Origin: Rhizaria sp. SCN 62-66
Lineage: Eukaryota
Length of the DNA stretch: 20,000 nt
NCBI GenBank assembly: GCA_001724265.1
Contig: MEDY01000236.1
Span: forward strand, 61,407-81,406
Reading direction: 5' to 3'
Of this stretch, positions 1 through 20,000 are shown one piece after another. Position 1 is the stretch's first letter. The number at the start of each line of letters is the position of its first letter. Made by a program: the position numbers and the translations under genes. The notes below the pieces were generated by a model. The model was not told where the DNA came from. It searched no databases and saw only the letters and a program-made list of their open reading frames with translations.

Positions 1-3000
1 GAGCTGCCGGCGCGGTACGGCGACGCTGAGGGCACGGGCGCCGTCGCGATCGCACTCGGCGCAGCGTATCCCGTCACTGGCGTGGGGTTGAAGTTGTTGT
101 AGTTCCCCGCGCCCGCGGTCGATAGCTGCGAGTCGTTGAGCGCGTCCAGGCTGCCGAACCCGCCGTAGCCCGCCGCGGCTGCAGCAGCGGGCGCGGGCGC
201 GGGCACAGCGCTGGCGGCCGGCGGCAGGGTCGCAGCGGGCGCCGTGGACGCGAAGGCCGAGTCCGAGTCCAGAAACGCCGGCTGGCGCTGCGGCCTCTCG
301 GCAGCCACTGCGGCGGCCTCGTCCTCGGCCCACCGCGCGGGCCCGTAGCTGCCGCTCGTGGCCGCGAAGCCGAACGCGGGGTGGCCCGCCGCGGCGCCGG
401 GGCCGAAGCTCGCGGCAAACGTGCTGTGCTGCTGCTGCTGCTGCTGCTACTGCGGTTGGCCGTAGGCAGTGGCGGCGGCGGGGCGCGCGGGGGAGGCGGC
501 GTGGGGTGTGCCGAGAGCGCGGGCGAGCTCGGCGCCGATGTCATCGTCGTCATCGTTCTTGTTGTTGCGCTTGCCGAAGCCGTGGCCGTGACTAGCGTGG
601 ACGTTGTTGAAGTCGCCGCTGTGGCTCGGCGTCGGCGGCTGGTACTGGAACTGCGTTTGTGACTGCTGCTGAGAGAGCTGGCCAGAGAGATGAGCGTTGG
701 CCTCGGCCGCAGCGTAGGCAGCGGCACGCCGCTCCATGGCGCCCGCCAGCCCGCCCGCCTTGGCGCTTGCACCGGCGGCGGGAGCGGGCTGGGCGGCGGC
801 AGGGGTGAACTGGCCGTAACCAATCTGGTGCTGCTGCTGCTGCGGCTGCTGCTGTTGAGGCCTCTGCTGCTGTTGCTGCTTGTTGGCAACGGGAGCGGCG
901 TCAAAGCTGTTAAATATGTCAGACGCGTCATTGTCCTCATCGCCAGCAACAAGAGGTGCAAGCATATGCTGCTGCTGCTGCAGCTGCGGTTGCTTGTGCG
1001 TGTTGGCAGCTGCAGGGCGCTCGTCCCAGTCGTCGAAGGGATCTGCCGTCTCCTCAGTCAAGTGACCGTGGGCAGGGTGATCGTGAGGCAGGCCGAACTG
1101 GTTGTTGTTGCTGTTGTTGCGCGCGTAGCCCGAGACCGTGGCTGTCGACGGCACGGGGCCCGGCGGCAGCAGTGGGGCGCCCACCAGGCCCAGACTGTCG
1201 TCATCACCATCAACGCCCTCGAACTCAGCCTTACCCTCGCGCTCGCGCTCGCGTCCGGGGTAGTTGTAATGATCGCTGTCGAAGTCATCGTCGTCGCGAC
1301 CGTGCGCACCGGTCACAGCCGGAGCCGCAGCAGCAGCAGTGGCAATGTTGGCGTTGGCGTTGGCCTTGGGGTCGTCGACGAGCACGGGCCCGTCCTGCAC
1401 CTCAGCGTCGTTGTCGCCGTAGTCGACGTCGCTCTCGCCCGCGCCGCGCGCGCCCCCCTCCTCCTCGTCGTCGTCAAGCCCGAAGGCGAAGTCGCCCGCG
1501 GCCGCGCCCGGCGGCGGCGGCACGTGCTACGCGACGTCGACGCCGGCGCCCGTCGCGCCCAGCGCAGCCGCCGGGGCCGGCGTCGGGGCCAGGGCCGTGG
1601 GCGGGAGCTCGGACGCAGGCGCAGACACAGGTTCGGGCTGTGCAGCAACAGGCGCAGGCCCAGGCTCAGGCACGGCAGTCGGCGCGGGCTCTTGCTGCTT
1701 CTCAGCACCGGCTGTGGCCGCATCCGCGTTGGGATACGCCGCGGGCACCCTTTCCTTGTTCACGTCACACAGATACTCCTGCTCCTCATCGTAGTCGTCG
1801 TCGTTCTCGACGCCTTCGGCCACGGTCGCGGAGACCTGCGCGCTAGGCGGCAGCGGCGGCGGCGGCAGCATCGCGCCCGCCGCGCGGTCGAAGATGGACA
1901 TCGTGCGCGTCTTTTGCTTTGGCACAAACGCCATCGCAGGCGCCGCAGCCGCACCAGCGCCAGCGCTGTAGCCATGGCCGTGTCCGTGTCCGTGAGCGTG
2001 GCCGGCGACAGTGACGGCCGGAGCGGGCGCGGGGGGAACGGAGAGGCCGCCGCCCGAGGCCGGAAGCGTGAGCGCAGACTTGGGCGGCAGCGGCGGCGGC
2101 ACGCGTGGCGGCGACACTGCACTGGCAGGCTCGCCAGCACCAGCGCCAGCAGCTGTCACAGCAGCGGGCAGGCCCGTCGCCGCCGGGGAGCTGACCGACA
2201 GGCGCGCGTGCAGCGGCGGCGGCGGCAGCGCGGCGTGCCGCGTGGGCAGCGGCACGTCCGCGCTGGGGCTTGGGGGCGCGGCTCCCAGTGAGCGGGCGCA
2301 TTGCCCCAACCCCAGCTCCAGCCCCTGTCCCTGTCCCTGTGCGAGCAGCGACGGCACGCCCTCGTCGTCTTCGCCCTCGGCGCCCGCGGGGCCGAACACG
2401 AGCTGGCCCGGCGCGGGCTGGGCGGGCGCGGCCGGCGCGGCGCCGCGGGCGGGCTTGACGGGCGCGGCGCGGGAGGAGGCCGCCGACGGGTGCAGCGGGG
2501 AAGAGCGCGAAAAGGCACGCTTGCCGGCGCGGTTGGGCGAGGTGCGGGCGCGCGCGTAGTAAATGCGACCGGTGCCGGCGATGAAGAACTTGCCCGTGCT
2601 AGAGGCTGCGGCAGGCGCACCGTCGCTGTGCTGCTGCTGCTGCTGCGCGAGAGAGAGCGCGGGCGGGGACGCGAGCGCGGCGACCCGCATCGCGACCGCC
2701 GGGTCGGTGGCGGCAGCGCCGGGCAGCGACGACGCCGACGATGACGCCGACGAAGACGCGGCGAGCGCGGCCTCGCGGATGCGGGCGCGCGTCAGCGGAC
2801 TGGACAGCGCGGCGCGCGGCGAGCAGAGCTCCGGCCCCGCGGCGTCGGTGCCCGGCCTCGCGGCCGTCAGCAGCGGCGACCGCAGCGAGCTGCCGCCGGT
2901 CGCCGGAGAGCGCGCGTTGGCGACCGGGCTGACGCAGTTCAGCGGGGCGGGCCGCCGCGCGTCGGCCTCGGCCCCCGGCGCCTCCGGGGACGTCACAACA

Positions 3001-3280
3001 ACCGTGGGCAGCGCCGGCGCGGACGCGGAGCCGGGCACCGCGGCGGCGCTGCTGTCCGCATTGCTCTCGCCGCTCGCGGCCTTAGTGTCCGCGGCGGGTG
3101 TGAGGTCGAAGGAGGACAGAACGGAGTCAAGCATGGCCGCGCTGACCGGCGCCAGCATCGCGCACACCGGCGCCGGGCCCTCCGGCACGCGCGGCCGCGG
3201 GCCGGACTGAGGGCTCGCGTGCGGTTGCGGCGAGGCAGCGGCGGCCGCAGCAACAGCTTCTTGATCAGGACGAGCTTGAG

Positions 3281-3312
<32 letters not shown>

Positions 3313-6300
3313 TGTTGCTGCTGCTGCTGCTGCTGCTGTTGACGCTCAACAAGAGAAGCAGCGGCGGGGAGCGCAGTGACGCTGCGCGCCGCGTTCCAGC
3401 GCGCGAGCTCGGCCACCAGGTCGGACGTGGCCCGCGCCGCCTCGGCCGCGGCCGCCTCGCCCGCTCTCGGTTCCGTCGGCCGCCGCACCGGCACTGGCGG
3501 CACCAGGGCCGCGCCGGGAGTCGCGGCAGCGTCGTACTGCTGCTGATGCTGCTGCACCTGCTGATCCTGTGTGAGCGGGGGCGGAACTCTGTAGGGTGAC
3601 GCGGCCGGGGGACCCGACTGGGAATACAGCGCCGCCGCCGCCGCGGCCATGACGGCGGCGTCCTGCGGCAGCACGTAGCCCGTTGCGGCCGGCTGCCCCG
3701 CGCGCGGACCCACCGAAGAGGGCATCAGCGGCGAGTTCCGCAGCAGCGCCACTCTGCCCTCGCCGCCGCGCGTCACTGCGGGCGCGGTGCCCGGAACGGT
3801 GCTCGCAGGGCAATGTGTGGCGGCGACCGAGGCGGGCAGCGGCGCCGTGACAAACGTGTCGCCCACCCACACGCCCACGGGCTTCGCGGCGCTCTGCGGC
3901 TGCGGCAGCTGCACACTCGCTGCTGCCTGCGCCGTCTGAGGCGCCGTTGCGGCGCTGCTGCGGGGCGGGACGGGCGGCGCGGCGGCGGGGCGCGGCGCGT
4001 TGCGACGCAGCTCCTCCAACCGCGCCTCAATCTCGTCGATGCGCGCGCGGTCGGCGTCGCGCAGCGCGGGCGCAGACGGCGTGCCCAGCGCGCCCGCGAA
4101 CGACTGCTGCCGCAGCGCCGGCGACGCCAGCGCGGCCGACAGCACGGCGGCCGCAGCGGCGGCGGACGCGGCCGCGAGCGCGGGGTCCGCGTGCTGCAGC
4201 TCCTGCTGGTATTGTTGCGAGGGCGGCGCAGCGCCGCGCGCGTACGGCGCGGCGGTCATCGCGTTTACGCTGCCGTTAAGGTCGTGCGCGTTCGCCCCGT
4301 TCACCGCGTTGTTGGCGTTGTTGCTGCTGCTCGGGAGCAAAGGGTCCTCGAAAACGAGACGAAACGCAGGCTCGGGGTCCGCGCCGGGCGCCTGCTGCGC
4401 GCGTTGCGGCTTCAGCGGCGTCGGCGCGCGGCCCAGCGCGGGCGGCAAGAACGCGGTCCCCGTCGCCACGTCGTGCGCCAGCGCGGCCGCCGCGGCGGGT
4501 ACCGGCACCGGCGGGGCGACGACCATAGCGGGCGCGGCAGCGGCAGCAGCAGCGGCGGCGGCAGCGGCGGCTGGAGGGGCCTGGGTCGAGAGCGAGGAGC
4601 CGCGGGGGCGCGTTGGCACCGCCGGCGGCGCCGCACCGGCAGCGGCAACGCCCCCCGGCGCGCTGGCCGCGGGAGCGAGGGCAGGCGGTGGCATGACAAC
4701 CTCCGTGGGCGTTTGGAACGTCGCGAAGTTAGGGCTGCCGCCCTGGCTCAGCGCGGCCGCGGGCGCTAAGGGGGCAGCGCCAGGCGCCGCGCCGGGTGCA
4801 GGCGCTTGTTTGCCCTGGCGCTCATCGGCGAGCTTGTCCTGATGTGCGCGCTGCTGCTGCAGCAGAACCTCGCGCTGCTGCGCGCTGTAGGCCACCTCCA
4901 CGGGTGCGGCGCCGGAGAAGGAGTACGCGTAACCGATGTTGCTGCGCTGCGCAGTGGCCACACCGCCCGGGACGTTGCTGCCGCCGCTGCCACTGCCATT
5001 GCCGAGACTGGCGCCCCCCGCGCCTGAGGCAGAGGCGGAGGGTAGCGCGCCCGAGGTGAGAGAGCGCGAGTCGACCCCGAAGGCCACCTCGCGCGCCTCG
5101 CCCCACTGCGCCGCCGCGCTTTGCACCAAGCCCGCGCCGCCGGGTCCGCTGCCGCTGCCGCTGCCGCTGCCGCCGTTGCTATCCGGGGCGCCGGCGGGGG
5201 ACAGGAGGCGCGCGTCGACCGCGGTCCCAGTCTGGAACCACGACGGCTGCGCTCCGGCCCCCGCGCGCGCGTCGGGGGCGCCGAACCCGCCAGTAGGCTG
5301 CCCCGGCTGCTGGTGCTGCGGCAGCGCCGCCGAAGGGTCCGAGCGGCCCGCCCACGCAGCGCTGGCCGCGGCAGCGTTGGCGGCGGCGCTGGGCGGAAGG
5401 CGCGGGTCCGCGGTCTGGCTGTGCACGAGCCCGCTGCCGCCCCAGGAGCCTGTCGCCGACGCCGAGGCCGCCGAGGCCAGGTCGGCCGGGTGCGGGCGCG
5501 CGGTCTCCCGCTCCAGCGGCTGCCCCGCGCCCACGCCCTCCTGGAACACCGCGCGCCCCTTGCCGTCCACTGTCGCCGCGGCGGGCGCAGCTGGCGCGCT
5601 GGGCGCGGGGCGGGAAGCGGGCCCCAGCGCGGCGGGCGAGGGCACTGCACCGGCGTAGCCGGCGTTGTAGCTGCTCAGCGGCGGTACGCCCACGCCCTCA
5701 GCGGCGAGTCCGCTCGCGGTGGTGGCCAGGTGGCCCGAGTGCGGCTGCAGGTACCCGTGGCCCGGCGCCGAGCCCTGCGCAAAGCCTGCCCGCGCAGACG
5801 GCCAGGGGTCTGCCGCCGCGCCAGTCACCGCGGCGGGCGCGGCTGGGCCGCTGGTGCCGCGCGCGGGGAGCTGCGGACCCAGCGCGGTTGCGGTCGCATG
5901 CGCGGCTGGGGGGGCACCGAGATTGGCAGTGGGGTCGGCAGCTGCCGAGACGGGGGCAGAATGGCCAGTGCCTGCCGAGTTGGGCCGGTGCTGCGGCCAC
6001 GCGCTGCCACCGGGGCCCGACACGGGCGCGGCCTCGGCGGTGGGGCCGTCGTCCGCAGCGTCCAAGGCCCACGCGCTCGCCCCGCGCGGCCGTGTCGCTG
6101 CGGCCGAATTAGCAGAGGAGCGGGGGGGCAGGCCGGGTTGGCCAGTGCGCAGAGCGCTGGCGAGGTCAGACTGCGACTGCGGGAACATCTGCTGCTGCTG
6201 CTGGTAGTTGTTATAGAGCACGCTCGCGTTTGAGTGGCTCTGTCCCCGCGTGTGCCCGCTGCCGTACCCGGCGGGACCCTGGGCCTGCGCCTGTGCCTGT

Positions 6301-9272
6301 CCATGTGCGGGCGTGCTGGGGTCCAGGTCGGGGTCCGACATCGCGGGCGTCGGCGGCGACTGCAGCAGCGGGTAGCCCAGCGCGCCAGCGCCAGTGGGCT
6401 TATTATTAGACTGTTGGTGCTAATGCTGCTGTTGGTTGGCCGCGGCGGCGGCGTAGGCGTGCACGCGCGAGGCCGTCGAGAACGCCGGCGACGCAGACGA
6501 CGGCGGCGGCAGCGCCCAGTAGCCCCCCGCCCCGTTGCCCGCCGCCGCGGCCACCGCAGCGGCTGGCGTTGCGGGCTGCGCTTGCGGCGCATGAGTGTGC
6601 TGCTGCTGCTGCTGCTGTGGCTGTTGTGGCTTCGCGGCACCCATGCCTCTATTGCCACCAAAGCTGTTGTGTGCGTTGCCCACGGGTCCGTGGCCATGTC
6701 CGTGGCCGTGGCCGGGGAGGACGATCTCGTGGAGCCCGTCGCCCGAGTCGTCTGGGTCCACCGTCACGGAGCGGTCGCCCGCGCTCGCGCTTGGGCCGCG
6801 CGCGAGCTCCGGGATGCCCTTAAGCGCGGCCGCCATCGCACTCGCTCTCGCGCCGCCTGGGCCGGCGCCGGGCTGCAGCCCGCCGCTGCTGCCATAGCCG
6901 GAGCCGCGGTAGTTGGCGGAGGACTGCGAGGGCAGCGGAGCGTTGAAGGCGACCACTGCGTCGGCGTCGCTGTCGCCAAATCGGTCAAAGTCGCCACTGT
7001 TGTGATGATAGCCGGCGCTGTTCTGCGCAAGCCGTGCATTGACGCCGCCTCCGCCGCCGCTGCTGCTGTTGCTGAGCGTGTAGCCGACGACGCCCGCCGA
7101 CGCGGGCCGCGCACGCACCGGCCCCGCCGCGGTGCCCATCGACGTCACCGTCGTCGCCACACTCTGCTGCTGCTGCTGCTGGCGGTGCGACTGCGAAGAG
7201 GGCACGTACGCAGCGCCTGCGCCGCCCGGCGCCGCACCCCAGGCGGGGAACTCGCGCATGTGCGGGGGCAGCGCGGGCGCGGCGGCGGCGTTGCGTGCGG
7301 CCGAATACGGCGCCGCGCCCCACGCCTCACTGCCCGCGGGGTCGAGCAGCAGCGGCGTCGCGCGCGTGTCTTGGTTTTCGCCCACGTAGCCCTGCGCCGC
7401 ACGGCGCATGTCAGGCCCGGCCGGGATTGCCGTCGCGGCCGCGGACGCAAACCACGGCTGCGCTGGCTGAGCAGCGGGCTGCGGCTGCTGGTACAGCGCG
7501 CTCGGCTGCGACGGCTGCGGCTGCTGCTGTTGCTGCTGTTGCTGTAGCGAGTGCGGGTGGTACTGCGGCTGGACCTGGTTCTGCGCGCTGCTGCTGTTGT
7601 GCGCGTTGCGGGGCGCCGAGGTGGCGGAGACGGCGTCGGCCCACGACACGAGCCCGTCGCCGTCGCCGATAGACGTCACTGTGGCCACCGCGTCGTGGTG
7701 ATGATACGCAGCACCCGTGCCGGTACCCGTGCCGGGACTCGTGCCACTCGCGGCGCCGTGGTTGACGTTGGCGCGCGCGGGCGCGGGGGGCGGTTTGCCA
7801 CTGGCACTCGCGGCGCTTGGGTTTGCAGTCGCAGTCGCGCTCGCGGGCGCAGCAGCAGCAGTCGCGACGGCAGGAGCTGCAGCATCTCTCGCCGAGTTGC
7901 TGCTGCCCGTGCTACTGCCGCTGGCGGCCATGGCCGGCGGCAGCGGCGCGACGTGCCCCGTCATGTTCAGCAGCGGCGGCGTGCGCGCGGCTCTGCCTCC
8001 GCCGCTGCTGGAGCTGCTGCGTGCGCTGCCCCCACTGCCGGGCCGCGCACCGCTGCTGCCGTTGCTGCTGGCGAGCGCGCGCTGGCCCTGGCCCGGCGAG
8101 GCCGCGTCGACGGGTTTGTCGGCCGGCCGCAGCGAGTACGGCGCCGGCTGCAGGAAGTGCGTGCGCAGCCAGCTCGACACAGACGTGGTGCTGTGCGCGA
8201 CGGGCACTTCGCCGGCGGAGGGCACTGCGGCCAAACGGGCCTGCGCCTCGGCGTTGCGCGCGCGCTCCATCTCGAGCTGGCGCGCGCGGGCCTCGGCCGC
8301 GCCGCGCTGGGCCTGCTAGAACGCCACCAGGGAGGGCGCGCGGATGTTTTGCACAGTCTGCGCAAAATATCAAGAATACAAGGGGGATAAGAACGTAAAC
8401 ATACAGAGAATACGTGAGAATACACCGGGTCCACGATGACATGAATTGCAAATCCATCCAGGGAAGCACAACGTACCTGCACATAGAACTGCGCGCGCGT
8501 GAGCGCGTCGACCCAGCCATTGGCGTCCTCCGCGGACTCGGCCCAGAGCACGAGCTCGCGGCCGCCCAGCGCGACGACCGAGGCCGCGCCGCCGGTCTGG
8601 CCCGACATGACGGAGCGCGCGTCGGCGGCCTCGTCGTCGCCGTCGCCGCCCGCGCCGCCCGCCGCGTGCGTGTGCGTGACGCGGATGCAGTGTGCCACAC
8701 CGCGGTACTCGTGCGGCGCCGACACCAACGCCACGGCCGAGAGCGGGATCGCGCGCGTGGGCGCGGCGCCGGGGTCGGGCGCCGCGAGCAGGGCCCAGTC
8801 TCCCGCAACCGTGGCCACAGTCCCGTTGCCCTGCGGGTGCGGCGGCGACGTCGCAGCGCGCGCGGCCGCTGCGGTGGAGTTGGCCTGCGAAGGCGCGCCG
8901 GCGCCAACGGGCGTGGGGACCTGGTACGAGTGCGGCAGCGCGGGCGCGTGCGCGGCCGCGGCGGCGGAGGGCGACGAGGCGTAGGCGAAGGGCTCTAGGC
9001 GGTAGTAGCGCTCGGTGTAAGGCTTGCCGAACAGGTAGGCGAGCTTGCCGGAGGCGGAAGTAGTTGATTTAAATTTCCGCAGCGAGCCGGCATACTGAGG
9101 GAAGGATATACAGATGGGGCTCAGAGCGTGAGAATGAGGGAGCGTGTCATATTGAAGAAAGGGAATGAGCCGGAGCCAAGGAGGTGCCGGCAAAGCGAAG
9201 GAGTCGATGGTTTGAAGGTGAAAAACGTACTAGCGGTGCGCCCTGAGGAGGGGGCATCGCCTGAGAAGCCAT
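1..9272 (-). CDS. Giant PH-domain protein with long intrinsically disordered Ala/Pro/Gln-rich region; join(9272-9231, 9094-8477, 8357-<1); 3'-partial; needs TAG read as a sense codon at 8316-8318, 6420-6422, 1527-1529 and 447-449
   Basis: ATG at 9272 gives MASQAMPPPQGAPL, spliced in phase 0 to YAGSLRKFK...AQFYVQ, then spliced in phase 0 to TVQNIRAPSLVAF*QAQ.... The ORF-track pieces 6420..8270, 1527..6341 and 447..1523 are all in one frame, separated only by single TAG codons. The frame stays open from 446 to base 1 (hand-translated) with the same codon style. Confidence 0.85.
3282..3341 (-). repeat. Coding (CAG/CAA)20 poly-glutamine tract
   Basis: Plus strand ctg/ttg run of 60 nt; translates as ER-Q20-PQ. 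Shorter poly-Q tracts occur near 429-449, 830-885, 6600 and 7520-7545. Confidence 0.95.
8358..8476 (-). other. Intron 2 of PH gene (119 bp, phase 0)
   Basis: Minus strand CAG|GTACGT...ttttgcgCAG; an AT-rich island between two GC-rich exons; removal puts the PH exon in frame with the 8.3-kb exon. Confidence 0.85.
8477..9094 (-). other. Exon 2, encoding a pleckstrin-homology (PH) domain with low-complexity loop insertions
   Basis: PH-like elements appear in order: PL|YAGSLRK (beta1), KPYTERYYRL (beta2), PTRAIPLSAV, HCIRV, and the typical C-terminal ELVLWAESAEDANGWVDAL strand-helix with the conserved Trp. Recognised by eye; no HMM was run. Confidence 0.8.
9095..9230 (-). other. Intron 1 of PH gene (136 bp, phase 0)
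   Basis: Minus strand GTACGT...ccttccctCAG; pyrimidine-rich; removal joins GAPL to YAGSLRK. Confidence 0.8.
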
Positions 9273-10227
9273 TGGCCGGTGCACAACACAGGTGAGTCAA
9301 CTTGAAGCGAGGAGAGTGGGCCAGCCTTTGAAAGCGGGCATGACGATAGGCGAAGAAAGTTAGGTGCGGATTGATGGCGATAAATTATCGAGCAAGAGTC
9401 ATATTTAAAATATATACATCTAAACAAATACGCGGCTTTGATGACAGAGTTAAACTCCCAATTGACGATGAGAATATTGGTTAAATGTGAGCTAAAGAGA
9501 AGCTACTCAGCCCTGACACAATCGAGCCGTTGCAGCCCTCACAAGCTCTTGTTTGACCTGAATAGAAGACGTTGTGAGAGGAGATATCGGTATAATTACA
9601 AAATCATTGCAGATTCACAAGGAAGAAACTTATTCAACTTTATTTTTAGTGACCGTATCTTGATATGCGCATTCTATCGAGCTACATCCACCATAAGCGG
9701 ATGATCATCGACACCACGACTGCTACTCGGACAAGGCGAGGAGGAGAAAGCAATGGCAGAAACAACATCACAACATTGGTAAACACCCAGGCAAAACGCT
9801 GGCATTACAGGGCGTTGTTATAATCGAATAAAAGGCACCCGTTGAGCATAATGCATAAACAACAAACAAAGATACGTAACTAGACACAGGAAAAAGGAAA
9901 AACAGTCACTATCAAGACGATACTTCTGAAAAAAATATGATTCGGAACACAGGAAAGCATTGCAAAATTGATTATTTTGCGATTTCTTTCATTCTCTTGA
10001 CAAGAAAACTGAACAAATGAGGGATAATTGTGATCAGGTTAGGCTGATCAACAGATGACAAGAAAACATATCTTGCGACAAAACATGGTGAATCTTGCAC
10101 CAAAAGTCACATAAAACAAATATGGTATGCAACATCAGCCAGTCTGATATCACATTACAGCGCAGAAAAATACCAACTGAATTAAATTTCGCACAATTCC
10201 TTTCCTGTTTTGTTGCAAACCAACGGT

Positions 10228-12131
10228 TTAGAGCTTCTTGGAGGTCAGCGCCTTGTTCGTCAGCTCACTGGCTTTGTTACCAAGTGTTTCACCCGATTCA
10301 TTCTCCGCATATCCCTTGGCCGAGTTGGCAAGCATGTCCGTGCTGACCTTATTGACAATCTTGCCCGCCTTCGTCGTCACAGAGGCAACCTTGGCTGCGG
10401 TCGCAGCGAGGTCCTTGAGCGCCTTAGACTTATACGCGTCTGCCTTGACCTTGCCGTCCGACTTTAGCATCGCCTGGTACTTGACCTCAATGGCCTTGGC
10501 GCCGACGCTGCTCGTAACCTTGCCCGTGACAGTGCCCACCTTGGTCGCAACCTTGTCGAGACCAGCGCGAGTCTTCTCAGCCACCCAGTCAGCGGTTACA
10601 GTCGCAGCCGCCCCCGCAGAGCCCGCGACCACAGTCTTGACCGTCTTCGCAGCAATGCTCTTGGCAGTTGAGGCAAGAGTCTTGGTGCCGAGAGCCTTAA
10701 GAGCGTCGAGACCAGCGCCTTGGGCACCGTCAGACAGCGCGTCCACCATGCCATCGATAGCTCCGGAGGTCACCTTGCTGTTGAGGTGTGTGACAGAGTT
10801 CAGGGCGTCGAACACCATACGCTCCGTCAGCGCAGTCTTGAGCTTACCCGCGATGATGGCCTTGTGGTATTCAATCTTCTCGGCATTGGTCATTTTCTTC
10901 ACCTTCTCGAGCTCGGCAGCGGCAGCGGCGGCGGCAGCGGCGTCGTCGGCGGCCTTCTTGACGTCGTACGCCTTTTGCTCCTGCGCGGAGGACCAAGCGC
11001 ACTGGCCAACAGTGGTGGGGCAAATTTGGCCGAGCGCAATGACGCGCTTGGTGCTCTTGAACAGGGACAGACCGGCGACCTTGAAGTCGGTGGCCGGGAT
11101 GGTGAACGACGGGATGGAGAAACTGCAGAGGCAGTCGGGGGTGACGCGGAGCTTCTTCTGGAGCAGAGCCATGCCCTGGCGGCACCAGGTCGTGAAGAGC
11201 GAGCTGAGATAGAGCGGGAAGCCGCAGAAAAACTTGCTGGCGATGGCGCCGAGACCGCCGGTCATAGCGCTGACGAGCAGGCCACACACCGCATTGCCAA
11301 ACGCCGTGCACGCAGAGCGGACAATGTAGTTGGCCACAGTCTTGCACCACGTGCACTTGTAGTCCTTAATCTTGGCGACGACCCAGTCGAACGCCTGGCC
11401 GATCTGCTCGCCGACGCCGTACATAACAGCATCCTGAACCAAGAGCGTGTGCAGCGTGCTGCGCGACTGGAACAGGTGCGCGTTCTGGTGCAGCGCAGCC
11501 ACAGCGACGCGGGCTTCAACAAAGGCAGCAGCGCCCTTGGGGGAGCGGCGCTCGCGGAGGGAGACCTCGGCGTCGACCTTGCGCAGCAGCGAGTCGAACG
11601 AGATCTTGTTGACCTGGACGGGGATGTCAACGCTCGCGGCGAGGTCAAGCAGGGAGGAGCGGTGCTGCTCAAAGAGCGCACTGTAGTCGTCAAGCTCCAT
11701 GTGCATGTGCGTACGAGCAATGTTTTGGCGCCAAGCTTGAAAGCCCTCCTTGTTAGCAGTCAGCGCGGCGAACACGGCCTTGTCTTGCTCGCTCTTCATG
11801 TCGAAGGGTACAGCAAGGAAGTCGTCCTGAGTGAGAGTGTCACGGGCGTTGTCGATGAAGCTTGCAACGTCGGAGGCCATAGAGGCACCAGGAGCCATCA
11901 GCGCCATCGCAGCGGTCTCATTAGACCGCATGTGAAGCACGTCGACAGACACCGCGACTCTGTGTGGGATGAATGGTGATGGGGAAGGGGGGCGAGGAAA
12001 ATGGGGTGAGCAAAAAGCGTGTATGGCGTAAGTGATAAGAAGAAAAAAGCACTCAGGTCCATTATATAAACGTACGTTTGAGTCACTGCAACAAGCAGTA
12101 GACCCAACAGGGCAGCGCATACGACACGCAT
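10228..12131 (-). CDS. Paralogue 1: putative secreted prepro-protein with 10-Cys saposin-like domain and basic K/A/T-rich tail, ~595 aa; join(12131-12076, 11959-10228)
   Basis: Exon 1 is MRVVCAALLGLLLVAVTQ(T), signal-peptide-like, followed by a phase-2 GTACGT..CAG intron. Exon 2 is homologous to the three neighbouring genes. Ends in TAA. The ORF-track N-terminus (MLVCDAC...) is translated upstream and intron sequence. Confidence 0.85.
11960..12075 (-). other. Intron 1 of paralogue 1 (116 bp, phase 2)
   Basis: GTACGT donor, ...cccacaCAG acceptor; same position (after 56 coding nt) as in paralogues 2 and 3. Confidence 0.85.
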
Positions 12132-12776
12132 CGCACACTAGCAAAAGGGATGGTTAACGAGAGGAGAAAAAAATTAATTTGTGGCAAAATTCGCATCCAG
12201 TTTTTCGGAACAAAGAGCATCTTGTTGAAGCATTCTCTACAAAAACATTATGATATCCGCACATCACGAAGAAAATAAACATGTGCACACATTTCTGGCG
12301 GTAATGGGATATACAAAATTTTCAATTTCATCTGCAGATACAAGGGATAAGAGAGAGAAACCAAAGGCATCACGTGTATTTTTTTAATCGACGACACAGA
12401 AGTGCAAAAACAACCAACAGAAGTCGGATAAGAAGAACCATAGCGCAGCTCTTTGTGCTTTCTGTCATCACCTCACACGTCTGTCTATCAGCGTCACACG
12501 CAGTGAAGAGCGATATGAGACGCACCCACCACAGGCCGTCAGAGGAATGTTGTGCACGACTGGGGGAGGCGGCGGGTGTGCAAATGTAAATGTACATGTA
12601 CATGTACAAGTTTAAGTGCGAGTGTGTGGCGCAGGCAGACATGACAAGCATGTTATCGACTCCATGCGCAGCACTACACGCGATGAGAACAGCAGATATT
12701 TCTGCACGCATATGAGTAAAAAGATCACGTAAATACACCACATATCACAGTGATTGTGCTGTTGCACACCGATTGC

Positions 12777-14637
12777 TTAGAACTTGACAGGGGCCAGCTT
12801 CGACTTGTCCGCGGTCGCGGTGGCGGTCTTGTTTGCAGTCTTGATCGGGGTCGTGGTCTTCTTAGTAGTCGACGCAGTGGTCTTGGAAGCGGTCTTAGAA
12901 GCAGTAGTAGCAGACTTGGAAGCAGCGGTGGCAGTCTTGGAGGTGGCAGTGGGCTTAGCAGCCGCAACGGGCGCCTTGGACGCGACCATGGGCATGTTGG
13001 CGTTGGCCTTGCCGGCAACCTTGGTGATAGAGGCGGCGACGGTGGGGAAGCTCTCGAAGTCGGTGATCTGCGACGGGCGCGCCGGCGTGGGGGCCTCGAC
13101 AGGCTTGCTAACCTCCTTCTCCTTGCCCCGGAAGGCGTCGAAGATGCGACGGAAGAAGGCGGACACGGTGGAGATGATGCCATCCTGCGGGGTGAGCTTG
13201 GTGATCTTGTTGAGCTCCTTGTTAACCTGCGTGCTCGACAGCGTCGTGGTGACGGTGCCGTTGAGGATCTGCGAGTGGTACGCGATCTTCTCCGCCTTGC
13301 TCATCTCGCGGATCGCCGCAATCTCGATCTCAGCGCGGCGCGCAAGGTCGGCCTGCATGGCGTCGTACTCAGCCTTAGCCGCGTCGGTGTCGAGGATGCA
13401 CTGGCCGCTCGCGACAGCGCACACGGTCCCGACGGGGACCTCGGCCGAGGCGACGGTCATGACGGGCTCGCCGGGCGCGGCCTGGACCTCAGCCTTGGGC
13501 AGCGTGAGCGAGGGCACGTTGAAAGAGCAGATACACTCGGGGGTGAGCTTGATGCGGGTCTGGATGTGGGACACGGCCTTGTAGCACCAGTTGCCGAAGA
13601 GCTTGTTGAGGTAGATGGGGAAGCCGCAGAAGAACTTGGCGGCGATGAAGCTGGTGACGCCGGTGAAGGCGGTGACGATGGCCGTGCAGATGTAGGTGCC
13701 GGCAAGGTCGCAGCTGGACTTAAGGATCTGTACGACGGCCTTCTGGCAGAGCTCGCACTTCTTCTCCTTGATGAGGTCGACGACCCAGTCGTAGGCCCTC
13801 TTGAGGTTGTTGATCAGGCCGAAGGTGATGGCGTCCTGCACCACGAGCGCGTGCAGCGTAGTGCGCGACTGGAAGAGGTGCTTGTTCTGGTGCAGCGCGG
13901 CAACGGTGACGCGGGCCTCGACGAACGCGGCGGCGCCCTTGGGGGAGCGGCGCTCGCGGAGGGAAACCTCGGCGTCGACCTTGCTGAGGAGGGCGTCGAA
14001 CGAGATGGCGTTGACCTTGGCGGGAATGTTCATCTCGGCAGCAAGGTCAAGCAGGGACGCGCGGTGCTGCTCAAAAAGGGGCTCGAAGTCCGAGAGCTCC
14101 ATGTGCATCGACGCACGAGCCATGTTCTGGCGCCACGCGTTGAAGGCCTCCTTGTTCTCCGTGAGGGCGTTAAAGACCTGGGCGTCCTGCTCGTTCTTCA
14201 TGTCGAAGTCGACAGCGAGGAAGTCGTTCTGGTTCAGAGAGCGCTGCGACTGCTCGAGGAACGCCTGAACACCCTCGATCGACTCAGACGAGTGGGGAGC
14301 GAGGATGGCCAGAGCCGCAGTCGAGTTCGACATGCGGCCCGCGGCGAGCGAGACCGCAGCACTGCAAGATAGAAGGGTGGAAAGTGAATGATGGGAACAA
14401 AAAAAAGACAAGACAGCAAAATAAGGCGGGAAAACGCAACATATCAACCCCGTGGCAATAGTGCATGAGATGCGTGCGAGGTCTGCATACAAAAAGAAGT
14501 TAGGCAAGAGAGTCGCGTCGGAGTAACCGAGCGAGCATGTTGTGCGTATCGCACGGGAAGCATTTGACAAGTTGTACGTACACCTGGGACACCATGGCCA
14601 TAAACAAGCCAAGGAAAACAGCGCAAAGGACACGCAT
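12777..14637 (-). CDS. Paralogue 2 (most divergent Cys domain and tail), ~546 aa; join(14637-14582, 14361-12777)
   Basis: Exon 1 is MRVLCAVFLGLFMAMVSQ(V), 56 nt. Contains the conserved HMELxDF..LFEQHR.SLLDLAA and KVDAEVSLRERRSPKGAAAFVEAR blocks and all 10 Cys. Ends in TAA. Confidence 0.85.
14362..14581 (-). other. Intron 1 of paralogue 2 (220 bp, phase 2)
   Basis: GTACGT donor, ...tatcttgCAG acceptor; homologous position. Confidence 0.8.
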
Positions 14638-15861
14638 GTTACCACTAGAGCGACAAGAAGGTTCAAGAGGCAGATTAGTGTGGCGTGAGCTTCGACCGTC
14701 GCGTCTGTTGGGGCGCTTACTAAAGCGATACCCCAGGGCCATAGTCAAATTAATAGAAGCATTGTCGAAGAAAAAGCAAAATTTCACCAAGGAATGCTGC
14801 AGAGAAAATACGAGCAACTGAAATTGACGAGCCAGAGAGGCACTACACGTGTTACAAAATTCCCGGCGACGCTGCTTGTAAAAGTCGTCGATCGACGACT
14901 GTATGTGCGAGCCAGTGACATTTTTTCGGAACAGCAACTTGAATAGACCGAAGTTTGTAATAAAAATGGGTGTACCCTAGTGAAAATATAATATAATTTA
15001 GATTTGACAGCACAATTAATCTGCATCCTAACGTGTCTATGTTATGCACCTATTCACATCCCAATTTTCAACGGGATGGGGTTGCTGTGCCGTGCTACGT
15101 CGCAAGCCAATTGTGTTCAACTCAGCTGAAAAGGTCCCTCAGATCCCATGAGTGGACGACCACGGAAATTACTTTTGTGGAAAACAAAGTACGTAAACGA
15201 AGATGTATTCAGGTACGATAGTTTTATAAGTCAGCGAACAAGGAAGGCTTGTCCTGGCTTGTGGAGAGAGGCACGTTCTCCGCGCAATTTTGAAGAATGC
15301 AGCACTCAAGTCTGCAAGAAAAAGATAAAACAAGACAGGAAGATTGCAGCACCGATATGATAGCACCGTTTGTGATTGCGTGCTCAAGGGCTGCGGGGGC
15401 AGCAGGGACAAGATAAGTTCGGAGGTGAGAGCAGTAGGACCAAACAGGCAAAATTAAGAGGAAAATCAGTTCAAGTACTTCAGCAGATGGAGTACACGTC
15501 GTGCAACACGATCCAGCAAAAACAGGAGGTCGACATCGACATCTTGTAGTATATAAAAATGATGATGATACAAAACAGCAACAGCAGACGTGGTGATGTA
15601 GGTGTCTGCAAGAGGTGCGTGAGATGCCTTGTAACGGCATAACTATTTACGCACCACGCAAACACACAAACAAACACAGACAACAAACCCGCTCAACAGC
15701 TGGCGCACAACTCACCAGCGTGAAAACACGACGTGGTAGTAGGGGTGTATATGCGGGCATCGCGATGATAAAATACACAAACAGAAACAATCACAGACAA
15801 AGAAACATAGGAATCACAGAAAGAGAAAACACACACGGTCACACGGTCACCACTCTTGGCT

Positions 15862-17943
15862 TTACTTGCCGTTGAGCTTTGAGTCAACCTTGTTGACAAC
15901 ATTTTTGGTCACCTTTTCGGCCACAGCGCCGTTGATTGCGTTCTTGGTCATATCGGATGCCACCGAGCCTGCCGCGCTGATGACCTTCTTCGTGGCCGTC
16001 TTCGTCGCGTTGGCTACCTTGTTGACGGTCTTGGTCGCGGACTTCTTGTAGGATGCTGCAGCAGCAGTGCCCTTTGTCTTCTTGATCACTGCAGTCTTGG
16101 CGTTGACGACTGCAGTGCCGACCTTCTTAACGGTCTTAGACGTGGCTGTCGCCGCCTTAGTGGCAACCTTGTCCGCCTTCTTCTTGACCTCCTTGGCAAC
16201 GTATGTTGCCCCCGTGGCCGTCACCGCGCCGATTGCGGACTTGGTCACCATTTTGGCAGCTCCAACAGCGGCCTTCTTGACGACAGCCTTGGCGCCGTCC
16301 TTGAGCGCGGTGCCCGCGGCCGCCTTGACGGCGCCCTTGATCCCTTCGCCCGACGCCAGCGCCTTGACGCCAGAGACGACAGACTTGCCGGCGGTCTTGC
16401 CAAGGCCAGTCACTGCAGTTAACACCTCGGTGACCATGCGCTGCGTCATCGCAGTCTTGATTTCGCCCTTGATGATCTTGGTGTGGTACGCGATCTTTTG
16501 CGCCTTGGTCATTTTCTTGACGCGCGCGAGCTCAGCCTCCGCAGCTGCTGCAGCAGCCGTGTCTTCCTTGGCCTTTTCAGCAGCGTATGTTTTCTTCTGA
16601 GCGGCTGTGGAGCCAATGCACTGGCCTGTCTTGGTAGGGCACACCTGGCCCAGCGCGATAGTGCGCGCCTTGTTCTGGTACACAACCGCGCCAAGAACCT
16701 CGAACTTGTGTGCCTTAATGGAGAAGGTGGGAATAGTGAAACTGCAGATGCAGTCGTTCGTGAGGCCAGCCTTGTTTTGAATCCAAGCCACGCCTTGGTT
16801 GCACCAGCCGGTGAATAGTGAGCTGAGATACACAGGGAAACCGCAAAGGAACTTGCCGGCGATGGTACCGATCGGGCCGCCCATGGCGCTGGCGAGCAGA
16901 TTGCACTACGATAGGATCGAGTGAGTTTGGAACAAAAAATAGTGAAAATGAGATATAGCACGCAGCGGAAAGATGTGAGTATGACTAAGAAATCAATCGA
17001 CACGAGTTGAATTTAACGTTAAAACAGTCATTTGACACATAAGAACGATCAAAGAAAACGTACGATAGCCTTTCCTGCAGCCTTGCATGCGTTTTTGAGA
17101 ATGTGGCTGACAATGTTCTTGCACCACGTGCACTTATACTTGGCAACATTCTTAATTACCCAATCAAATGCCTGCCCAATTTGAGTGCCAACACCGAACA
17201 TCACAGCATGCTGCACAAGCAGCGAGTGCAGCGTCGATTGCGATTGGAACAGGTGCGCGTTCTGGTGCAGAGTTGAGACAGTGACGCGGGCCTCGACAAA
17301 CGCCGCAGCACCCTTAGGGGAGCGGCGTTCGCGGAGAGAAACTTCAACATCAACCTTGCGGAGGAGCGCCTCGAACGAGATGGCGTTAACTTGAACAGGG
17401 ATGTCGACGCTGGCAGCGAGGTCAAGCAGCGAAGCGCGGTGGTGTTCGTGCAGGGCGCTGTAGTCACTGAGCTCCATGTGCATGCCGGTGCGGGCCATGT
17501 TCTCGCGCCAGGCCTAAAATCCGGACTTGTCGTGGGTCAACGCCTCAAACACGGCCTTATCTTGGTTGTTATTCATGTCAAACGGTGCGGCGAGGTAGTC
17601 TTGCAGGGAGAGGCGGTCCCCAACGTCTTCGATGTACGCCGCGATTTCGGCCAGACTGGCGGCGTTGCTGGGCTCCAACAGATTCAGGGCCGCAGTCTCA
17701 TTTGTTAAAGAAGACCGGTGGAGTGCCATGTTGACGGCAGAGCTGTGGACACAGGGTATTGTAGCAATATGAGTTCAGATGTGGGAATGGTCAGACGGGA
17801 GCAGAGAGGACGAAATGCATTTCGCGTGGCACCGGATGATCGCAAACGAACGTAAAAAGCGGCTTTGGGCTAGATGAGAAGACGTACGTTAAAACGACAA
17901 ATGCCGCTAGAACGAAAGCAAGCGTCGCCCTGAATGCACGCAT
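15862..17943 (-). CDS. Paralogue 3, ~592 aa; join(17943-17888, 17742-17064, 16905-15862); one in-frame TAG at 17514-17516
   Basis: Exon 1 is MRAFRATLAFVLAAFVVL(T), 56 nt. ORF pieces 17514..17729 and 17049..17498 are in frame across a TAG. The second intron joins GKAI|CNLLASAMGGP, matching GNAVCGLLVSAMTGG in paralogue 1. Ends in TAA. Confidence 0.85.
16906..17063 (-). other. Intron 2 of paralogue 3 (158 bp, phase 0), absent from the other three paralogues
   Basis: ATC|GTACGT...ctatcgTAG|TGC; AT-rich; removal restores a gapless alignment to the paralogues. Confidence 0.9.
17743..17887 (-). other. Intron 1 of paralogue 3 (145 bp, phase 2)
   Basis: GTACGT donor, ...gtgtccaCAG acceptor; homologous position. 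Confidence 0.8.
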
Positions 17944-18758
17944 GTTTTCACACCTGAGGATGAGAGAGGTGAAGCAACAAGTAAGTCCGAGGCTGAGTAA
18001 GGCACTTAATGAAGAAATAAAACGGAATATAATATGCAAACGGAAGTTAAGCTATTAAGAAGCAAAATTAATTAAATTGCGAATACGCGTCAAATTACTC
18101 ACATTGCGAGTTGATGCACATATCGTGCACATGCGGGCTATTGAGAACAGAAAGACCTCCTTTGGAGTCGCGTCAGTGGTCCTTTCTAAAGCCGCCTTAA
18201 CTCGATGAATACGTGCTCTCACCAAACATAATACAACAGACCACGAGGCACTGTAACTTTGACATATGAATATCGTAATGAAACTAGGAATCGCGGTCTT
18301 GCTACTGTGTTTTGACGCTACTGATGTAACTTCTCATCCGGATGTTGACTTCAGCCTCGTCGCCAGCTGGATCGGTAACCAGGTAACTGTGAGCACCAGA
18401 CACCACCCACATACACCGAAAAGTAGTGGATACAACAACGCAATTAAGTCGGACAATGATAATAATGACATATACTTGTTCTGCAGACCGCGCACTTTTT
18501 ACTCATTCCAATTTTGAGACGTTTATTGAAGATATTCAGAGGAATATGCTCGTTCAGTGAGGGTACTCTCAGTGCGTCTGGTTCTTACTGGGCATGATAG
18601 GCTCCATTGCGACACCTCTTCAATGGTTGTGACAATAAACAGTCCGTAGAAATGTGCTTCCATCAGCGTGATTCGTTCATCAACAACAACTGCGCTTTTG
18701 AGAGGAACTCAATCACGCATTAGTGGCCGAAGTTGTCTGACATAGGACCGTCAGTCGT

Positions 18759-19940
18759 TTACTTGGCACAAGTGCCGGCCTTGGGGATGCAAATCTGGCC
18801 CAGCGCAACAGAGCGCGCCTTGTTGCGATACACAACTTTGCCGAAGACGGTGAACTCGTGCGCCTTGAACGTGAACGTGGGGACGGTGAAGCTGCACACG
18901 CAGTTGTCTGTGACCTTGGTGGCGCGCTGGATCCACTCGACGCCCTTGACACACCACCCGGCGAACACAGAGTCAAGGTGCACGGGAAAGCCGCAGAAGA
19001 ACTTGTCGGCGATGAGCCCCAGCGGACCCGTCATGGCGTCGACGAGCAGGGTGCAGATCTTCTTGCCGGCGAAATCGCACATCTTCTCGCGGATCGACTT
19101 GACGATAGACTGGCACCACTGGCACTTGTACGTGTTTACCTTGCCCATCACCCAGTCGATCGCCTTGCCGATCTGCGCGCCGAGCCCGAACTGGATGGCG
19201 TCCTGCGCGATGAGCGGGTGCAGCGTCGTGCGCGAGTTGAACAGGTACGCGTGCTCATACAACCCGCTCACAAGCGCGCGCGCATCGACCGCAGCGGCAA
19301 CACCCTTGGGCGCGCGGCGCTCGCGAAGCGATACCTCGGCGTCAACCTTGCGCAGCAGCGCGTCGAAGGAGACCTGGTGGACCTGGACGGTGATGCCGAG
19401 CGAGGCCGCGAGGTCGAGCAGGGAGGAGCGGTGCTGCTCGAAGAGTGCGCTGTACTCGGCCAGCTCCATGTGCATCTCGGCGCGCGCAATATCCTCGCGC
19501 CAGGCGGTAAAGGCATCCTTATTCTCAGTCAGCGCATCGAAGATGGCGCGGTCCGACGCGTTGTTGTCGATGTCGAAGGCGACAGCGAGGTAGTCGTTGT
19601 GAGTGAGGCTCGCGGTCGTCTCGTCAAGGTAGGCCACCACCTCGGCGAGTCCAGCGTCGCTGCTGCTGGGGTTCAGCAAAGCAAGCGCGGCCGTTTCATT
19701 GGTCATCGCGGCCTGCGCGGACGCCATGAGTGAGGCGTTGCTGTCCATACAGGGACACGGTCGGCATGCGAGAGACGAGAGAGGTGGGTGAGAACATGAT
19801 GAGAATGAGGCAAGGCAGGGCTCCAGGAACTGGATCAACTGGCTTTGGATGTAAAAAAGAACGGTTGAACAGGTTTTAAGACGTACGTCAGCATGGCAAG
19901 TTGTCACAACCGACATTCTGCATAAAATACCAACTCTCAT
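18759..19940 (-). CDS. Paralogue 4: pro-like domain plus 10-Cys domain only, with no tail; main exon 19740-18759; first exon and start uncertain
   Basis: The main exon is intact and homologous, with all 10 Cys; TAA comes two codons after the last Cys (CAK*). Upstream is a GTACGT..CAG intron-like segment (19886-19741), but the MRV... exon is 54 rather than 56 nt, so it is out of phase. Confidence 0.7.
   Translation of the reverse strand: MRVGILCRMSVVTTCHADVRLKTCSTVLFYIQSQLIQFLEPCLASFSSCSHPPLSSLACRPCPCMDSNASLMASAQAAMTNETAALALLNPSSSDAGLAEVVAYLDETTASLTHNDYLAVAFDIDNNASDRAIFDALTENKDAFTAWREDIARAEMHMELAEYSALFEQHRSSLLDLAASLGITVQVHQVSFDALLRKVDAEVSLRERRAPKGVAAAVDARALVSGLYEHAYLFNSRTTLHPLIAQDAIQFGLGAQIGKAIDWVMGKVNTYKCQWCQSIVKSIREKMCDFAGKKICTLLVDAMTGPLGLIADKFFCGFPVHLDSVFAGWCVKGVEWIQRATKVTDNCVCSFTVPTFTFKAHEFTVFGKVVYRNKARSVALGQICIPKAGTCAK
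19741..19886 (-). other. Probable intron 1 of paralogue 4 (146 bp)
   Basis: AC|GTACGT donor, pyrimidine-rich 3' half and gaCAG|C acceptor, at the same position relative to NETAA as in the paralogues. Confidence 0.6.
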
Positions 19941-20000
19941 AGGCTCACACTGGGACAAACACCACCCACGGTCGTTTCGGGGCGGGTATATAAAGGTGGC

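Follow-up and report, generated by a model that had tools for sequence, protein, structure and literature searches.

In-frame TAG codons, probably read as glutamine, in the genes of a GC-rich wastewater eukaryote that terminates with TAA

We analysed a 20,000-nucleotide stretch of contig MEDY01000236.1 (Rhizaria sp. SCN 62-66), hereafter referred to as the window, focusing on an in-frame TAG codon in the third of four tandem paralogues. The window is eukaryotic, and all modelled genes lie on its minus strand; the exons, introns and codons described below are those of that strand. The four paralogues occupy the region from 10.2 to 20 kb, and the region below about 9 kb contains the last exon of a long low-complexity gene. 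The base composition changes sharply at about 9000, from 70-79% GC in the long gene to 54-65% in the genes of the paralogue array and 44-48% between them. The TAG in question (17514..17516) is codon 95 of the 592 codons of paralogue 3. The original prediction, made from the letters of the window, was that this TAG stands for glutamine (Gln) and that the gene is not dead. We consider that it is probably right, and its real support was found to come from evidence outside the site to which it referred.

Paralogue 3 consists of three exons. Exon 1 (17888..17943) begins with the ATG at 17943 and is signal-peptide-like (MRAFRATLAFVLAAFVVLT); it is supported by the spliced joint 17742|17888 in a complementary DNA (cDNA) contig, across which the reading frame is kept. 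Intron 1 (17743..17887; 145 nucleotides (nt), GTACGT..CAG) is defined by the same joint, where it appears as CT..AC on the plus strand. Exon 2 (17064..17742), which is based on the sequence and the cDNA joints, contains the TAG. It is followed by intron 2 (16906..17063; 158 nt, GTACGT..TAG, GC content 0.36), defined by the cDNA joint 16905|17064, and by exon 3 (15862..16905), which comprises 347 codons and TAA. The spliced coding sequence (CDS) is 1779 nt long and has 592 codons, one internal TAG and a TAA stop. The codons downstream of the TAG, about 500 of which had been described as intact, are indeed undisrupted once the intron is removed, but they are not contiguous, being arranged as 150 codons, the 158-nt intron and 347 codons. 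Intron 2 carries stops in the raw frame and is seen spliced out in a cDNA contig of the X5 assembly. With this intron removed, all 10 cysteines (Cys) noted downstream of the TAG are kept. The expression that had been proposed as a check was observed as well, since X5 cDNA contigs are spliced at both introns and one of them includes the TAG; the level of expression is unreadable from contigs. In the protein database, paralogue 3 is present only as a 149-residue fragment, P0020. Among the paralogues it has the lowest GC content at third codon positions (GC3, 0.72) and the most CAA codons.

The TAG itself is real and not an assembly error. The minus strand from 17530 to 17499, ACAAGTCCGGATTTTAGGCCTGGCGCGAGAAC, reads aag tcc gga ttt TAG gcc tgg cgc, and the same TAG was found unchanged in contigs from three other studies dated 2017 to 2025. 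In X2 (record 6, from another study and year), a 2079-nt contig covers positions 16466-18544 with no other letters. In X5 (record 23), a cDNA contig covers positions 17373-17742, again with no other letters, and is spliced at 17742|17888. In X4 (record 14, from a third study), the contig ends two bases past the codon. Since the TAG is present in the spliced X5 contig, it is present in the processed messenger RNA (mRNA) and is not edited to CAG. This comparison with other runs covered positions 8200-20000 of the window. An assembly from the Joint Genome Institute (JGI) is without a contig over 15085-17651; neither this gap nor the end of the X4 contig was given any weight.

The paralogues were aligned by codons together with their relatives. 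A metagenome scan for the family gave six loci; two of them (L001 and L002) are pieces of the window, and the other four (L003 to L006) are short contigs with almost no other genes. The original prediction, that the TAG lies opposite a CAA of paralogue 1 and opposite asparagine and threonine in paralogues 2 and 4, proved correct to the base: the aligned codon is CAA in paralogue 1 (11737..11739, within AAG GAG GGC TTT CAA GCT TGG CGC), AAC in paralogue 2 (14139-14141) and ACC in paralogue 4 (19506-19508). The column contains Q in 10 of the 15 homologues, and T, N, L, K and R in the remaining five. It had also been remarked that TAG is one step from CAG, and the CAG codon itself is present at the aligned position in all four related loci. 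Because of the Q in 10 of 15 homologues and the CAG in 4 of 4 related loci, the ancestral codon at this site of paralogue 3 was almost certainly CAG, as judged from the alignment, a single C>T step from TAG. The alignment to Gln is thus better than had been noticed. As an internal control against pseudogenisation it is weak, because CAG>TAG is also a classic nonsense route; depending on the transition bias, Gln codons are the start of 10-28% of the single-step routes to a stop in paralogue 3.

Of the 44 columns without variation among the 15 other members, paralogue 3 keeps 42, and it keeps 84 of the 87 columns with at least 90% conservation. These values are typical of the family and exceed those of paralogues 2 and 4. 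No frameshift, extra stop or broken splice site was found in its 592 codons, and both introns are GT..AG. The ratio of nonsynonymous to synonymous substitution rates (dN/dS) of the core downstream of the TAG, which had been suggested as a check, was not raised (0.21-0.43 for paralogue 3, versus 0.27-0.65 in six control pairs of other family genes), but this check is blind to a recent loss of constraint, because dS between the paralogues is saturated (1.05-1.43).

A second gene of the window also contains in-frame TAGs. This neighbouring, PH-domain-like gene has a predicted exon 1 (9231-9272), an exon 2 (8477..9094) with a weak PH-domain match in Pfam that is below threshold (E 0.0032, 18.4 bits versus a cut-off of 25.1), and a long last exon (3..8357) that runs off the window and is open apart from its TAGs. 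Three of these are unambiguously in the reading frame. The TAG at 6420..6422 lies in a Gln/His tract (N Q Q Q H [TAG] H Q Q), and that at 447..449 lies in a poly-Gln run (CAA CCG CAG TAG, then six CAG); the context of the TAG at 1527..1529 (G V D V A [TAG] H V P P) is uninformative about the residue. A fourth TAG (8316..8318) is ambiguous, being in frame if the acceptor is 8358|8357. The frame from 8369 to 3, of 2789 codons, contains four TAG, no TAA and no TGA, whereas the two other sense frames contain 23 and 39 TAA and TGA codons. The stretches that follow the individual TAGs (631, 1630, 359 and 148 codons) have no stop and a GC3 of 0.79-0.90, and past the first robust TAG, at 6422, another 2138 codons retain both frame and codon bias. 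The 150 nt on each side of the individual TAGs have a GC content of 0.72-0.78, as compared to 0.36-0.50 in the three introns seen spliced. Gln was found 11 times within three residues of the four TAGs, as compared to 1.78 at random positions (P = 0.002), and L, E, K, Y, S and W were not found there at all. A dead gene cannot explain 2789 low-complexity codons without a frameshift, TAA or TGA.

The use of terminators is different from that of TAG. All eight family genes, i.e. the four paralogues of the window and the four in the related loci, have TAA as their terminator, with a purine (A or G) directly after it, and none ends in TAG. The five genes of the window have 4764 codons, with five in-frame TAGs (in two of the five genes) and no TAA or TGA. 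Their Gln-type codons are 230 CAG, 44 CAA and 5 TAG, so that TAG represents 5 of 279 (1.8%). Four of the five in-frame TAGs are followed by C (TAG CAG or TAG CAC; P = 0.035 from the composition of codon position 1), and that of paralogue 3 is followed by GCC. An IFT43 gene (E 3.7e-12; L003:2539-3234, minus strand) was observed beside a family member on a related metagenome contig. This gene, which ends in TGA, suggests that the relatives have flagella or cilia and use TGA as a stop.

The reading that we favour, and to which we attach a good deal more than even confidence, is that UAG is decoded as Gln in this organism and that UAA stays a stop. Its core support is a real TAG in spliced cDNA, the lack of any other lesion in paralogue 3, and a second gene whose only in-frame stops are three to four TAGs. 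This uncultured eukaryote, GC-rich and with introns, would thus translate UAG, most probably as Gln, and terminate with UAA. The TAG of paralogue 3 would be an ordinary rare Gln codon, derived from CAG by a C>T change, and paralogue 3 would be an intact, transcribed and spliced gene for a 592-residue protein of the secreted type, with 10 conserved Cys and an Ala/Lys-rich tail. By analogy with codes described elsewhere, UAG would be decoded by a Gln transfer RNA (tRNA-Gln) with the anticodon CUA, the release factor eRF1 would be blind to UAG, and UAG would mean Gln genome-wide. To the wider proposal, that this GC-rich, intron-bearing eukaryote of wastewater and bioreactors separated UAG (Gln) from UAA (stop) independently, as a further origin outside ciliates and fornicates, and that its relatives are probably flagellated, we give an even chance.

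It is important to mention the points that weigh against decoding of UAG as Gln. The sample is small, namely one 20-kb window with two TAG-containing genes, and a single TAG site has alignable homologues; at that site, the Gln alignment alone corresponds at most to a likelihood ratio of perhaps 4-10. The intron may end with the TAG at 8318 (TTCTAG|CAG), an arrangement that also keeps the frame; the pyrimidine tract is better at the acceptor 8358|8357, and the GC content of the 42 bases that separate the two acceptors is 62%. TAG is about six times rarer than predicted from position-specific composition (4 seen, 25.6 expected). A TAG-only pattern is expected in a CAG-rich gene, where 73-78% of the nonsense routes give TAG; the probability of three TAGs out of three under random nonsense is 0.39-0.47, and the fact that all in-frame stops are TAG was rejected as stand-alone evidence for this reason. 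None of the four complete gene ends in the window is TAG, but these are only four genes, and the end of the long gene is outside the window, so that TAG may still serve as an occasional stop. The family genes of the four related loci have no in-frame TAG. The tRNA scans of the window and of L003-L006 found none, and Rfam scans of the same sequences gave nothing. The TAGs at 6422, 1529 and 449 lie outside the stretch that was compared with other runs, and the contigs used in that comparison show neither minor alleles nor the level of expression. Finally, the two departures of paralogue 3 from invariant columns, R>Q and D>H, are both located after the TAG.

The main competing explanation, which we regard as unlikely, is a leaky or dual-meaning UAG, i.e. 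a codon that is still a stop but is efficiently read through in favourable contexts by the near-cognate tRNA-Gln(CUG) or by a low-level suppressor. The code would then be ambiguous and not reassigned. Termination is weakened by a C at position +4, and near-cognate tRNAs insert Gln, among other residues, at UAG. The C after four of the five in-frame TAGs, the TAA plus purine at all eight true terminators and the rarity of TAG relative to composition would all agree with such leakiness. However, the +4 C is confounded with the Gln/His-rich context, and the TAG of paralogue 3 is followed by GCC and not by C-A. Moreover, partial readthrough at three to four TAGs in one frame would multiply to a negligible yield, whereas the neighbouring gene keeps its frame and codon bias over the 2138 codons mentioned above; several TAGs in one frame thus argue for near-complete decoding. 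The features of programmed single-site readthrough were not found either, as there are three to four TAGs in one frame, and the TAG of paralogue 3 is at codon 95 of 592 with G at +4.

Slightly less probable still is that the standard code applies and that a CAG>TAG change in one member of a redundant tandem family, paralogue 3, very recently turned it into a pseudogene or null copy. Read with the standard code, the gene does have one premature TAG, and three paralogues alongside could serve as spare copies. The required change is a one-step transition from the CAG of the relatives and belongs to the 10-28% of nonsense routes that start from Gln codons. The two changed residues downstream of the TAG would also fit, the saturated dS would hide a recent loss of constraint, and a nonsense transcript may still be detectable in cDNA. 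Unlike a pseudogene with a premature stop, paralogue 3 has no frameshift, second stop or lost splice site in 592 codons, it keeps its conserved residues, both of its introns are still spliced out in cDNA, and the same TAG recurs in X2, X4 and X5, over the years 2017 to 2025. Above all, an unrelated neighbouring gene has the same "lesion" three to four times. A dead paralogue 3 leaves these TAGs unexplained; the neighbouring gene would have to be dead too, in spite of its long frame without frameshift, TAA or TGA.

Improbable, in our opinion, is a sense UAG with another meaning than Gln, such as the Leu, Glu, Lys, Tyr or Ser of UAG reassignments elsewhere. This could be argued from the single site with homologues, where T, N, L, K and R are found in 5 of the 15 sequences, and from the uninformative context of the TAG at 1529. 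The majority of Q in that column, the location of TAGs in poly-Gln and Gln/His tracts, the lack of L, E, K, Y, S and W within three residues of the TAGs, and the single step from the CAG of the relatives argue for Gln instead. Lastly, a sequencing or assembly artefact, or editing of the TAG to CAG in the mRNA, is largely refuted by the identical TAG in contigs of three other studies and its presence in spliced cDNA, and no support for it was found; a putative CAG allele, suggested by an X2 contig that diverges at 17515, was set aside, as its eight diverging letters (-G GGC TTC CAG) are those found in other members of the family, for example L004, and probably come from another family copy.

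The other members of the family share much of the organisation of paralogue 3. Paralogue 1 (10228..12131) has a main exon that extends to the TAA at 10228, and a predicted signal-peptide exon (12131-12076) and 116-nt intron. Paralogue 2 (12777..14637) starts with the ATG at 14637 and ends in TAA, and its intron (14581-14362) was seen spliced. The main exon of paralogue 4 (18759..19748) ends in TAA. The family proteins start with a signal-peptide-like sequence and comprise a helical N-terminal part, a domain in which 10 Cys are conserved, and a long tail rich in Ala, Lys and Thr. The tail is missing in paralogue 4, whose TAA lies just past the tenth Cys, so that about 250-400 residues are lacking, and the sequence that follows is AT-rich and looks non-coding. 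A full-length tail is present in 14 of the 15 other aligned members, and that of P0011 is short. Intron 2 of paralogue 3 lies inside the Cys-rich domain. Paralogues 1, 2 and 4 as well as L003-L006 are without it, which indicates either a gain in one tandem copy or parallel losses.

In each paralogue, a small first exon (MR and a hydrophobic stretch) seems to be followed by a GTACGT intron (first exons at 17888-17943, 14582-14637, 12076-12131 and about 19887-19940); the first introns were seen spliced in paralogues 2 and 3 and are predicted in paralogues 1 and 4. In the genes of L003 and L005, no intron interrupts the part that encodes the signal peptide. Due to these small first exons, the database proteins of this organism start too late. 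All five donors that were fully read are GTACGT (three seen spliced, two predicted), and the predicted donor of paralogue 1 starts with GTACG; a literature search for the GTACGT donor motif gave nothing usable.

The database search found a family of about 16 members, none of them named, in 5.8 billion sequences, and a profile search gave no new members beyond the fragment P0020. Scans for the family in genome contigs and viral contigs found no relative. Neither the four paralogues nor the long open reading frames were assigned to a family in Pfam. In the ESM Atlas there was no match above 0.77, and no structural match above a template modelling (TM) score of 0.25 by query. AlphaFold2, run on a nine-sequence alignment, gave a model that was too poor for a fold search (mean predicted local distance difference test (pLDDT) 57, predicted TM score (pTM) 0.32). 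A fifth family member, P0011 (locus L004), has 82% DNA identity to paralogue 1 over 516 nt; it comes from the same metagenome as the window pieces and, according to the database, is also found on a 176-kb contig elsewhere. In paralogue 1, a contig of poly(A) RNA (X6 record 28) differs from the window by 13 letters, and of the 10 differences listed in 11497-11530, nine are at third codon positions. Judged by these letters, the contig represents a second expressed version of the sequence (haplotype, strain or close copy) on which purifying selection acts.

DNA of the window is found in bioreactor, wastewater and activated-sludge metagenomes; some part of it was present in 19 of the 20 runs among the matches listed, from 11 studies, and half or more of its sampled words were present in four of these 20 runs. 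At about 19901-19967, the contig depth rises from about 6 to more than 200 in both X2 and X4. Loose ends occur at 19901, 19932 and 19967, and position 19955 shows an A/G difference. This stretch, which overlaps the predicted first exon of paralogue 4, is either shared with something far more abundant or highly repeated.

UAG and UAA nearly always change their meaning together. Few nuclear lineages are reported to have UAG as a sense codon and UAA as a stop (PMC5304391, PMC11687900). If decoding of UAG as Gln is true here, this very GC-rich uncultured eukaryote would provide another independent data point on the separation of UAG from UAA, with a base composition opposite to that of most stop-to-Gln lineages. 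As a practical consequence, gene callers that use the standard code cut the proteins of the organism at every TAG, and the long neighbouring gene is split into pieces in the protein database. A search of the literature for a wastewater eukaryote with a reassigned stop codon gave nothing usable among the matches listed, which is not proof of absence.

Codes with UAG as Gln and UAA as stop are reported for Iotanema spirale (Fornicata) (PMC5304391), and for Protocruzia tuzeti and two phyllopharyngean ciliate lineages (PMC11687900). The window shares with the Iotanema type, which resembles NCBI table 15, a UAG that appears as a sense codon at Gln positions and a UAA that terminates: five in-frame TAGs were found in otherwise intact CDS, admittedly a small sample, and eight of eight family genes end in TAA. 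It differs in that the genome is GC-rich (coding GC3 of 0.72-0.89) with GT-AG introns of 116-220 nt, and in that the code was deduced from one window and not from a transcriptome. The codes with UAR as Gln (NCBI table 6 type) are more widespread, being found in many ciliates, Ulvophyceae, Hexamita, Streblomastix and Amoeboaphelidium (PMC11687900, PMC5304391). They also convert UAG from stop to Gln, but their UAA is Gln too, whereas here UAA ends all eight family genes and is never in frame in 4764 codons. In the rhizarian exLh (Leu) and in Scotinosphaera (Ser), UAG is assigned to another residue while UAA is kept as a stop (PMC5304391, PMC11687900). UAG and UAA are decoupled there as they probably are here, and the difference is the residue, as the contexts in the window point to Gln and not to Leu or Ser. 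The present case probably belongs to the known type in which UAG is Gln and UAA is stop, and we make no claim of a new lineage.

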